Sequence record: MH051913
Source of the DNA: Enterobacteria phage vB_EcoM_IME281
DNA length: 64,000 nucleotides
Strand: one strand, 5' to 3'
Within the stretch, counting starts at the first letter, position 1. Each line of letters opens with the position of its first letter. This document shows, piece by piece, positions 38,208-42,876 of the stretch. The translations under genes and the position numbers were made by a program. Below the pieces are notes generated by a model. The model saw only the letters and a program-made list of their open reading frames with translations. It searched no databases and had not been told where the DNA came from.

Positions 38208-38519
38208 ATGCAAAGCACCGACATTTCTCAATTGACCGAAGAGCAAATTGAAGAAGCCCAGAAGCGTTTAGAAGAGAATAATGCTAAAGAAGCCGCTTCT
38301 CAAGCTGCCAAAATTCTTAAAAAGAATGCCCGTGAAATTAAGCGTCTTAATACACACGCACAGGGCGCTGTTCTCGAAAACAATTTCGAAGCTTACAAAT
38401 ATGCTATAATTAAATTACGTGGTATTTACCGTCAACCAACTACTGACGAAATCGTTAGAGTTATGTGGGAAACTACGCGTAAACAGATTTGGGAAATTAT
38501 CAATGGCGCTAGTAAATAA
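38208..38519 (+). CDS. hypothetical protein (103 aa)
   Basis: ORF track. Confidence 0.45.
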   Translation: MQSTDISQLTEEQIEEAQKRLEENNAKEAASQAAKILKKNAREIKRLNTHAQGAVLENNFEAYKYAIIKLRGIYRQPTTDEIVRVMWETTRKQIWEIINGASK

Positions 38520-38703
38520 ACCCTTTAAACGGCTTCTTATTGGAGCCGCCTTCAGACTTCGCTCATACGGTAATATTTGTATTAAGCAGACTGAAACCGA
38601 ATATAAAATGGTTGGGCAGTATTCCGATGAAATTTTTCGGATTGAGCCTGTAGCCAAGGTTTGGGTTGATTCACATCAACTTAAGAAGTGGTGGCAACGA
38701 TGA
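38503..38703 (+). CDS. hypothetical basic protein (66 aa)
   Basis: M29 of track ORF 38419. Confidence 0.3.
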   Translation: MALVNKPFKRLLIGAAFRLRSYGNICIKQTETEYKMVGQYSDEIFRIEPVAKVWVDSHQLKKWWQR

Positions 38704-38803
38704 TAACATGGACAGGTGGCTAATGAAAGACGAACATCCGGATTTTTAAGCTATGAATGACGAATACGAAAAAGTTTAAGAGGTTTTATGAATGACGAAT
38801 TCG

Positions 38804-38965
38804 ATGGATTTTGATAAGATTAAATCTGACAAAAATGAGATGATACTTAAATTTGAAGCTGCTCGTATTAAAGCGGAAAATGAAGGTACTATTACCTATA
38901 AGCCTATCAAGTTCAGGTCTTCTCATGAACCTCTGTATGGCGTATTAATTGGTAAAGGAGCTTAG
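38804..38965 (+). CDS. hypothetical protein (53 aa)
   Basis: Not in ORF track; follows three tandem 8-codon mini-ORFs; stop lies inside terminator hairpin. Confidence 0.35.
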   Translation: MDFDKIKSDKNEMILKFEAARIKAENEGTITYKPIKFRSSHEPLYGVLIGKGA

Positions 38966-42111: not shown

Positions 42112-42127
42112 GCCTCTTATTGAGGCT
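42111..42127. terminator. hairpin between convergent genes (possible bidirectional terminator)
   Basis: AGCCTC-TTATT-GAGGCT; T-rich flank on plus strand only. Confidence 0.4.
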
Positions 42128-42833
42128 TCATTTTACAGTTATCGAAATGCCAACGATTCATATTACCGGAATTCCCTTGTTTACCACAATGAGGGCATTC
42201 TACCTTCTTTTCTGATTTTTTGCGTCCGTTAGGATTTTTCTTACAAAAAACTTTATGAGCCGCAATAACACAGGATTTTCCTGAAAGGCCACAGAATTCA
42301 CATTCCACAATTTTATGGACCATGTTTTCTAGGCCTTTCTTTATTTTTAATTTTTGCTCTTCAGATATAGAGCGGTCTACTTTATTAGGGCCTTTAGGAC
42401 AGTTATCGAAATGCCATCTGTTCATATTGCCTACCAATCCAGTTTTGCCACAGTGTGGACAGGTAACTCTAGGCTTTTTTAAAGCGGAAATTGACATTTT
42501 CTTTCTGGTTTCTTCCGAGAATTCTTTATCCTTTTGGGCTTCTGAATTCTTACGACGAAGCCATCCAAATAATTTATTTTTAGACCTATCAGCTTTTGGT
42601 GAGCTAACTGTCATCATTCTTGCTGCATAGACTAACGATGCGTTATCTGGATGGATTTTAACTAACAACTGGTGAGCCAAGTAATGTTCTTCAGGTGTTA
42701 AGTCTACCAAGTTTAAAGCGTCATCCGTCCCACCCATGCATTGTGGTATAATGTGATGACGTTCTTTATAGGTAGTTAAATTTCTATTAACTGCTCGTTG
42801 AATAAGCTTTTCGTATATTGATTTATAATTCAT
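42117..42833 (-). mobile_element. free-standing HNH homing endonuclease gene (238 aa)
   Basis: Only opposite-strand gene in the replication block; MNYKSIYEKL start typical of T4 Mob/Seg enzymes; HNH core HHIIPQCMGGTDDALNLVDLTPEEHYLAH; two C-terminal repeats CPHCGK..GNMNRWHFDNC; inserted where T4 has only 45.2. Confidence 0.75.
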
Positions 42834-42876
42834 TATCAAATCCTTATTTGACACAGCGACCGATAAAGATATTTAT

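Follow-up and report, generated by a model that had tools for sequence, protein, structure and literature searches.

Three tandem 8-codon open reading frames upstream of a-gt.2 in a T4-like phage belong to a widespread family of predicted acidic/aromatic micropeptides

In the 64,000-nucleotide (nt) stretch of Enterobacteria phage vB_EcoM_IME281 analysed here (sequence record MH051913; hereafter the window), three tandem open reading frames (ORFs) of eight codons lie downstream of the small gene a-gt.3 and run into the start of a-gt.2. The window and Escherichia phage JS98, a Dhakavirus of T4-like type, are 99.6% identical; gene names are those of the JS98 annotation mapped onto the window, and "JS98" below denotes the window sequence. 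The three units, MKDEHPDF (unit 1), MNDEYEKV (unit 2) and MNDEFDGF (unit 3; Table 1), belong to a previously undescribed and widespread family of short acidic/aromatic peptides, of which each unit is one module with its own start and stop. The explanation we favour, at a probability of roughly 40%, is that they are real translated micro-genes under selection at the peptide level, perhaps mimics of acidic tails with a C-terminal Phe.

Tandem mini-ORFs of this kind are not a product of chance. The initial annotation had reported three tandem 8-codon mini-ORFs with near-identical starts, and we recovered them at exactly the same coordinates, with start-to-start distances of 30 and 35 nt. The shared start ATGAANGAYGAR was found three times in the window, always at a unit, against 0.31 occurrences expected, and a count of three was reached in none of 100 shuffles. 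A repeat search returned units 2 and 3 as a 35-nt tandem repeat with 74% identity. Among the 88 ATG-start 8-codon ORFs of the window, units 1–3 alone passed an ad hoc filter demanding two adjacent acidic residues and a last residue F, V, L, W or Y. Similarly, a six-frame search of the window for [DE][DE][FHYW]xx[FVLW]-stop returned these three and no other.

The number and order of units vary among relatives. About 100 Dhaka- and Gaprivervirus genomes match the stretch, over 231–328 nt (261 in JS98), and unit architectures were taken from the sequences of 18 relatives. Between a-gt.3 and a-gt.2, these carry one to three units, or a 28-amino acid (aa) ORF ending in DEHPDF. The triplet, which the initial annotation had proposed to look for in related genomes, is complete in JS10, MN01, CLBP2 and Mizar, which read MKDEHPDF-stop, MNDEYEKV-stop, MNDEFDGF-stop as does JS98; the other relatives have one or two units or the 28-aa ORF. 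IME08, Bp7 and 212 have M(K/N)DEYEKV-stop followed by MNDEFDGF-stop, VR5 has MNDEHPDF-stop followed by MNDEFDGF-stop, and in SP18, UPEC07, EAWsc9 and Esco_phi_B-01 the 28-aa ORF MTIDDVDILTSDELKRLGNIFQDEHPDF stands between M(K/N)DEYEKV-stop and MNDEFDGF-stop. JS98 differs from IME08 by exactly one extra 30-nt unit, located between ATGAAAGACGAA and TACGAA, and its unit 1 is chimeric, with a ATGAAAGACGAA head that passes at GACGAA into the tail of the 28-aa ORF, DEHPDF-stop. Because of the chimeric junctions at GACGAA and this one-unit difference, we conclude that units have been gained, lost and recombined, and the sequences point to the shared 12-nt ATGAAYGACGAA heads and the TTT-TAA-GAGG junctions as the sites of exchange. 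The earlier suggestion of scars left by repeated recombination at a gene start is thus upheld for the recombination, by the copy-number series and the chimeric unit 1, and is unlikely for inert scars in units 1 and 3, whose modules are conserved. Taken as a whole, the earlier interpretation is partly supported, on recombination, and the wide micro-ORF family lay beyond its view.

Loci of two further genera, Tequatrovirus and Mosigvirus, were retrieved by searching with a-gt.2, independently of the mini-ORF sequence. Most Tequatroviruses carry (G/A)TG AAA GAT GAA CAC CCA GAC TTC TGA, that is (V/M)KDEHPDF-stop, which overlaps the a-gt.3 stop and has a-gt.2 in its +1 frame; Mosigviruses carry ATG CAT GAC GAA CAT CCC GAC TTC TGA (MHDEHPDF-stop) in the same arrangement. 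DEHPDF-stop is therefore found beside a-gt.2 in Tequatrovirus, Mosigvirus and Dhaka/Gaprivervirus by homology searches in which the peptide pattern was not used. Three Mosigvirus loci (L075, L077, L079) also have a second tiny ORF, MREIDLGIF-stop, 5′ to MHDEHPDF and ATGA-coupled to the a-gt.3 stop; the 26-aa ORF MVKEINLDIFIGCNECGCYDDEHPDF of Erwinia phage Cronus (L031), which has a CxxCxC motif, has a matching N-terminus.

The differences between genera in DEHPDF-stop (GAT/GAC, CAT/CAC, CCA/CCC/CCG/CCT, GAC/GAT, TTC/TTT and TGA/TAA) are all synonymous, with a single D>N exception (L070); residue 2 of unit 1 also varies. In unit 3, three sites are polymorphic in 27 T4-like copies (11 distinct variants), and 3/3 fall at third positions of the mini-ORF, the same changes being N>S, S>L and M>T when read in the a-gt.2 frame. 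Since changes in unit 3 are synonymous in the mini-ORF only, the constrained frame of the overlap is that of the mini-ORF and not that of a-gt.2, whose first residues are unconstrained in relatives (N/S, S/L, M/T). For units 1 and 3 pooled, eight of the nine variable sites are third positions (binomial against 1/3, about 0.001, calculated by hand on this small sample and treating sites as independent). This is a coding-type substitution pattern, and conservation with a synonymous bias thus appears to hold for both units.

The unit that enters a-gt.2 also bears on the start of that gene. The initial annotation had unit 3 overlapping a +1-frame ORF of 53 aa starting at 38804 and ending in a terminator. 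The overlap and the terminator were confirmed, at a different start: a-gt.2 is annotated from ATG 38792 (57 aa), and since codon 38804 is ACG in many relatives, 38792 is to be preferred. The protein matches Pfam DUF5486 with 72.9 bits (cut-off 27; E 1.9e-20). In T4 (L222, NC_000866 38731-38922), a 1-nt deletion fuses the mini-ORF in frame to a-gt.2, reading MVATVKDEHPTSEIDYNKIR..., and the fused reference a-gt.2 has 63 aa (MVATVKDEHPTSEID..). A different 1-nt deletion likewise produces an in-frame fusion in HY03 (L024). When 60 records were sampled evenly from the 832 phage records matching the fused T4 protein, the alignment started at residue 1 in 5/60 and at residues 5–14, mostly 10–11, in the others. 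Because just these five align from residue 1, the split arrangement is the norm: on these alignments, most records keep the mini-ORF separate, overlapping a-gt.2 in the +1 frame, and T4 is exceptional.

We then examined the modular organization of the peptides. A protein search with a natural 39-aa member, to which one N-terminal Met was added, returned 27 small proteins of 30–63 aa without a Pfam domain, and the query matches phrog_6828. These proteins are built of shuffled modules, MKDEFDGF, IGYGEGI(R/H)QA, EDVDVF and VGFGEGISS, with one or two modules each at or near the C-terminus (DEHPDF, DERPDL, EENWGF, DEYEGV). Unit 3 corresponds to the N-module and unit 1 (DEHPDF) to a C-module, while unit 2 (DEYEKV) resembles the DEYEGV C-module. 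Three settings recur for DEFDGF, DEHPDF and DEYE(K/G)V: an 8-codon ORF that has its own start and stop, a 14-aa ORF of two modules, and the N- or C-terminal module of a 24–41-aa peptide. Among Pfam, NCBIfam, PADLOC, PDB and phrog_6828, the small peptides matched phrog_6828 only, and the literature searched (on the peptides, a-gt.2/DUF5486, SSB-tail mimics, T4 ribosome profiling and late-operon mini-ORFs) gave no description of them. The core modules IGYGEGI, VGFGEGI and KIGFGEGI (P0001–P0027, L038) contain I/V-G-F/Y-G. The IGF loop of ClpX (GIGFGA) docks on ClpP, and the resemblance may be a separate lead for the longer peptides.

The 8-codon form is not confined to T4-like phages. When viral contigs were scanned for M-x-DEFDGF with no stop specified, a stop was present exactly at codon 9 in 99 of the 138 matches listed, against about 5% by chance. 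These 99 copies (MH 51, MN 20, MK 10, MY 9, MF 5, ML 2, MR 1, MT 1) span T4-, epsilon15-, lambda- and phiEco32-like phages, the MH copies forming one epsilon15/phiV10-type prophage family. The region around an epsilon15-type MH copy is present in 637/5426 complete Escherichia coli genomes (about 1 in 8), just 5′ to terS, a count of the region and not of intact micro-ORFs. After near-identical flanks were collapsed, a Shine-Dalgarno (SD)-like motif preceded the micro-ORF in 14 of 30 upstream contexts among the matches listed, against 15% of background ATGs; a terminator-like hairpin was present within 75 nt downstream in 14/44 contexts (6% in the background), several beginning 1–7 nt past the stop. 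Across the DEFDGF contexts, every synonymous codon of D, E, F and G occurs, which disfavours a signal at the DNA or RNA level. In a scan of one genome per species, six Enterobacterales genomes and two Bacteroidota metagenome-assembled genomes had the 8-codon ORF, about one match being expected by chance, and the family appears restricted to phages of Enterobacterales.

Similarly, a scan of IMG/VR for DEHPDF-stop returned the T4-like loci together with small ORFs bearing an SD in unrelated contigs. One of these, the 14-aa ORF MFDEFDGFDEHPDF, combines both JS98 modules; in Proteus, Yersinia and Salmonella lambdoid phages it stands right after the terminator 3′ to the Q gene and before the holin gene. 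Gifsy-2 shares this Q-gene terminator region and has no micro-ORF there. Other small ORFs from the scan are MKDEFDGFDEHPDF, MHDEHPDF and MIRNFRFSDEHPDF, and DEHPDF-stop also closes peptides of 24–39 aa, for example in RB43-, Cronus-, phiEco32- and phAPEC8-like phages. For DEYEKV-stop, matches outside T4-like phages mostly looked like chance, with one convincing case (L219). Two larger proteins that end in DEHPDF, one of the RecT family and one of 127 aa, were considered as carriers of a transferable tail motif and down-weighted, since we estimate that IMG/VR would contain about 0.6 such C-termini by chance alone. The former (L043 2555-2575) has 388 aa, with a Pro/Ala-rich linker followed by ..GQMRFDEHPDF-stop; this may be chance or a genuine acidic tail.

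Several loci of the family deserve separate mention. In two phiEco32-like phages (L027, 77 kb, and H94, IMEP8), ..SGCFEDEHPDF-stop, MYDEFDGF-stop and an a-gt.2-like gene follow each other as in T4-like myoviruses, and a cassette common to phiEco32-type podoviruses and T4-like myoviruses implies its horizontal exchange; in a third phiEco32-like phage (L058), the micro-ORF is followed by a terminator, without a-gt.2. In an E. coli prophage of epsilon15/phiV10 type (L200 3755-3781), the small terminase gene as called by PGAP begins at a TTG within the MHDEFDGF micro-ORF, and its frame crosses a terminator-like hairpin; the ATGATG some 70 nt further downstream is probably the true start. A 12-bp palindrome, GTGACATGTCAC, adjoins the micro-ORF in L089, L101, L202, L208, L209 and related prophage loci, either just 5′ to it (epsilon15-like) or just 3′ to its stop, and in L209 two micro-ORFs of opposite orientation, 2.2 kb apart, each have a copy. 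The palindrome may be an operator or a packaging-related site.

On the + strand of JS98, gene 55, a-gt.5, a-gt.4 (38208-38519) and a-gt.3 precede the spacer and a-gt.2, and the terminator after a-gt.2 is followed by 47.1, 47, 46.2, 46.1 and 46. The spacer is 88 nt long and without annotated feature; the mini-ORFs that it holds enter the first 23 nt of a-gt.2. The a-gt.3 TGA is 4 nt 5′ to ATG 38708 and 19 nt 5′ to unit 1, and in the longer form of unit 1 that may start at this ATG, codons 3–4 vary freely among relatives. The SD between units 2 and 3 is conserved and lies 4 nt from ATG 38788 and 8 nt from ATG 38792; the 4-nt spacer 3′ to it is hypervariable, being saturated with changes. An alternative +1-frame ORF, MTNTKKFKRFYE-stop, uses as its start codon the second ATG of the unit 2 sequence ATGAATG, and its TGA and the a-gt.2 ATG overlap in an ATGA; in UPEC07 this frame continues into the 28-aa ORF to give an annotated 39-aa coding sequence. 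In UPEC07 (L007), Klebsiella phage Biddle_MM4 (L023), H12 and H24, homologues of a-gt.2, a-gt.3 and a-gt.4 are labelled 'prohead core protein protease', 'head maturation protease', 'hemolysin' or 'anti-restriction nuclease', labels that look like annotation-transfer errors. Just past gene 46, on the opposite strand, a 245-aa ORF (42117-42854, −) combines an HNH-like HHIIPQCMGG motif with repeated zinc-finger motifs (CPHCGK) and resembles an inserted homing endonuclease.

Table 1. Features of the a-gt.3/a-gt.2 interval in the window
Feature	Position	Strand	Source
a-gt.3 (66 aa), upstream gene	38503..38703	+	JS98 annotation, ORF list
Possible longer unit 1, MDRWLMKDEHPDF (13 aa), from ATG or GTG right after the a-gt.3 stop	38708..38749	+	
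Shine-Dalgarno-like AGGTGG, 3 nt 5′ to unit 1	38714..38719	+	
Unit 1, ATG AAA GAC GAA CAT CCG GAT TTT TAA, MKDEHPDF-stop, DEHPDF C-terminal module	38723..38749	+	
Unit 2, ATG AAT GAC GAA TAC GAA AAA GTT TAA, MNDEYEKV-stop, DEYE(K/G)V module	38753..38779	+	
Alternative +1-frame ORF MTNTKKFKRFYE-stop	38757..38795	+	sequence
Shine-Dalgarno AAGAGGT, first two bases overlapping the unit 2 stop codon	38777..38783	+	
Unit 3, ATG AAT GAC GAA TTC GAT GGA TTT TGA, MNDEFDGF-stop, 8-codon M-x-DEFDGF micro-ORF	38788..38814	+	
a-gt.2 (57 aa), Pfam DUF5486, +1 frame relative to unit 3	38792..38965	+	JS98 annotation, profile match
Intrinsic terminator hairpin overlapping the a-gt.2 stop codon	38954..38973	+	terminator scan

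We infer that the units are translated and that selection acts on the peptides themselves; the enrichment of SD motifs and the codon pattern bear on translation. Unit 1 would be translated through its SD-like site or by reinitiation after a-gt.3, unit 2 by reinitiation 3 nt past the unit 1 stop, and unit 3 from the SD that would also serve a-gt.2. More speculatively, the short acidic peptides with a free C-terminal Phe could act in trans as decoys, imitating acidic C-terminal tails of the kind that bind replication and repair hubs, on the model of the E. coli SSB tip MDFDDDIPF and the JS98 polymerase tail ..TLFDMFDF, and would target a partner conserved in enterobacteria; in this scheme, the passage of ribosomes along the tiny ORFs from a-gt.3 to a-gt.2 would be a side effect. 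A short linear motif acting in trans is favoured because the modules are conserved at N-termini, at C-termini and when concatenated, because genomic contexts and downstream genes differ, because the acidic, aromatic composition with a free C-terminal Phe is that of hub-docking tail motifs, and because free peptides of the tail type are known to bind.

Free 9–15-mer peptides of the SSB tip bind and modulate partner proteins (PMC7913777). Like this tip, the units are short, acidic and contain aromatic residues, and MKDEHPDF and MNDEFDGF end in a C-terminal Phe with a free carboxylate; GFDEHPDF and the SSB DFDDDIPF have the pattern F-D-acidic-x-x-x-F in common. Unlike SSB, the units are not attached to a DNA-binding protein. 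JS98 gp43 ends in ..KKATLFDMFDF, with F-D-x-F at a free C-terminus as in the units and in the same phage; in RB69, KKASLFDMFDF binds the gp45 clamp. Unlike in the polymerase-tail setting, micro-ORFs are also found in lambdoid, epsilon15-like and phiEco32-like phages, which to our knowledge lack a T4-type clamp.

Several observations weigh against translated, selected micro-genes and against the tail mimicry in particular. SSB has Pro at −2, whereas DEHPDF has it at −3 and DEFDGF has none, so that no unit has a Pro-Phe end; the mimicry is only a lead, drawn from resemblance, and the RecT-family and 127-aa proteins ending in DEHPDF may be chance matches. An 8-aa peptide is expected to have a short lifetime in the cell. 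Relatives conserve the SD before unit 1 poorly, and unit 2, starting 3 nt past the unit 1 stop, has none. Unit 2 in relatives also shows D>Y, E>K, a premature stop (TH57) and ATG>TTG (VR7); its constraint looks relaxed and, from these variants, it appears to be decaying in the JS98 lineage. T4 and HY03 lost the separate mini-ORF by 1-nt deletions without obvious harm, and about 9/60 epsilon15-like copies (L085, L104, L106 and similar) lose the stop through TTTT>TTT before TGA. Finally, pattern scans recover synonymous variants only, by construction, so the argument for selection rests on the smaller set retrieved by homology. As to the TTT variant itself, it opens a 37-aa ORF, MHDEFDGFEYCRQLWRLYFAWYYYHNGNYYHGGYDAC, through the hairpin; it may reflect decay, a sequencing error in the homopolymer or true variation. 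We can also imagine, as a rather doubtful generalization, that enteric phages encode free 8–14-aa micropeptides of shuffled acidic D-E-aromatic-x-x-Phe modules, serving as C-terminal-tail decoys for the docking pocket of a conserved hub (an SSB-interacting protein, a sliding clamp or similar).

The main rival to selected micropeptides is a cis-acting leader or relay, in which the act of translating the tiny ORFs would matter, possibly with the ribosome stalled at the stop by the nascent peptide; we consider it unlikely. The units would then couple termination at a-gt.3 to reinitiation at a-gt.2, and might tune a-gt.2 through competition of ATG 38788 and ATG 38792 for one SD, while in temperate phages a ribosome held at the stop could block a nearby terminator hairpin. 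Stop-to-start distances are indeed short, unit 3 and a-gt.2 have one SD in common, and the +1 overlap of a mini-ORF with a-gt.2 recurs in Tequatro-, Mosig-, Dhaka/Gapriver- and phiEco32-like phages; in Tequatrovirus, an SD-like GGTGG lies 5 nt from the mini-ORF start and 12 nt from the a-gt.2 ATG. The micro-ORF of temperate phages heads late operons, its place being either downstream of the Q gene with its terminator or immediately 5′ to terS, and the enrichment of downstream hairpins mentioned above is as such a leader would have it. However, DEFDGF is equally conserved as the N-terminal module of 30–40-aa peptides, far from stops, modules are concatenated in MFDEFDGFDEHPDF and MFDEFDGFDEFDGF, downstream genes differ or are absent, and stop codons are mixed (TGA and TAA).

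Nor did the leader-peptide or reinitiation control put forward in the initial annotation find structural support in JS98. The RNA fold of 38690-38850 is no more stable than that of shuffles (z = +0.95), the region being less structured, and an RNA element or attenuator in JS98 was rejected on this ground. No Rfam match was found at the region, apart from a 13.9-bit chance match on the terminator, nor any at four related loci; the promoter scan of the region gave background level only. JS98 has no terminator between the units and a-gt.2 and no hairpin after any unit, and so lacks the terminator/antiterminator hairpins of an attenuation leader, whereas some temperate members have a terminator directly after the micro-ORF.

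Another possibility, which we regard as improbable, is that the units are inert recombination scars: recent, undecayed fragments of a phrog_6828-type small gene or of an ancestral a-gt.2 N-terminus, conserved only beside the signals of a-gt.2. Such an origin would fit the unstable copy number and the chimeric junctions, the fragments of other modules seen in other frames (LVGFGEG-stop in VR7, MREIDLGIF-stop in Mosigvirus), the visible degeneration of unit 2 and the fusion of the T4 unit to a-gt.2. It is difficult to reconcile with intact 8-codon ORFs in genera whose a-gt.2 is only about 60% identical, with synonymous-only change beside a saturated spacer, and with the 8-codon form being the commonest in more than 20 unrelated contexts where SD motifs are enriched. 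Inert scars are thus unlikely for units 1 and 3 and plausible for unit 2.

A frameshift was also raised earlier, and a programmed +1 frameshift of the prfB type is very improbable: translation from ATG 38788 would slip at GGA-UUU-UGA (38806-38814) by UUU to UUU movement of tRNA-Phe into the open +1 frame, giving a-gt.2 as MNDEFDGF-DKIKSDK..., and UUU_UGA with an open +1 frame is also found in phiEco32-like L027 and epsilon15-like prophages, T4 and HY03 have natural in-frame fusions of the acidic head to a-gt.2, and the constrained frame is the mini-ORF, but Tequatrovirus and Mosigvirus have the non-slippery GAC UUC UGA with poor re-pairing on UCU, no SD-like stimulator lies 3 nt upstream of UUU, a +1-frame ATG within SD reach exists in every lineage (ATG 38792 of JS98 is 8 nt from GAGG), and the DUF5486 profile scores the annotated N-terminus at 72.9 bits against 68.3 for the shifted product.

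Gene callers and family databases skip ORFs below about 20–30 codons, so an 8-codon gene family is invisible by construction. The comparative signature is here unusually clear: the same peptide, with its own start and stop, occurs in many unrelated contexts with all synonymous codons and constrains an overlapping annotated gene. If free micropeptides do serve as tail decoys, their genes would be among the smallest selected protein-coding genes known, missed by every gene caller and present in T4-like, lambdoid, epsilon15-like, phiEco32-like and phAPEC8-like phages; if made and active, the peptides, which are cheap to synthesize for binding screens, would offer a directly testable case of selected micropeptides in the best-studied phage groups. 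The analysis also explains a hypervariable spot of T4-like genomes, corrects the likely start of a-gt.2, identifies the T4 reference gene as an atypical fusion and offers a model of module shuffling via microhomologies of 6–12 nt.

Among the known systems compared, minigenes, leader peptides and acidic tail motifs, none fits the family fully. Short cis-acting leader peptides include the 8-aa cmlA and 5-aa cat leaders and TnaC. As in such regulatory leaders and attenuators, the tiny ORFs stand 5′ to a gene start or overlap it, sometimes with a terminator next, and have a conserved peptide; unlike them, JS98 lacks alternative RNA structures, longer peptides conserve the modules as well, and no ligand or regulatory logic is evident. 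With the prfB frameshift, they have UUU_UGA and a +1-frame ORF in common, and differ in having no SD stimulator, a site that is not conserved and an independent start. Like lambda bar and the synthetic minigenes of 2–8 codons, the units are very short phage ORFs; the bar minigenes (2–3 codons) act by peptidyl-tRNA drop-off and tRNA sequestration, independently of the peptide, whose sequence is not conserved, whereas the units have 8 codons and a conserved amino-acid sequence. Work on minigenes spans lengths up to 8 codons, and toward 8 codons drop-off falls and normal termination rises (PMC2490762). In comparison with phrog_6828 (about 40 aa, for example a hypothetical protein of Enterobacter phage EC152), the JS98 units are single 8-aa modules without the IGYGEGI, EDVDVF and VGFGEGI core and are too short for profiles or gene callers; like its members, they belong to enterobacterial hosts and have the N-terminal MKDEFDGF and the C-terminal DEHPDF, DERPDL, EENWGF or DEYEGV as their counterparts.

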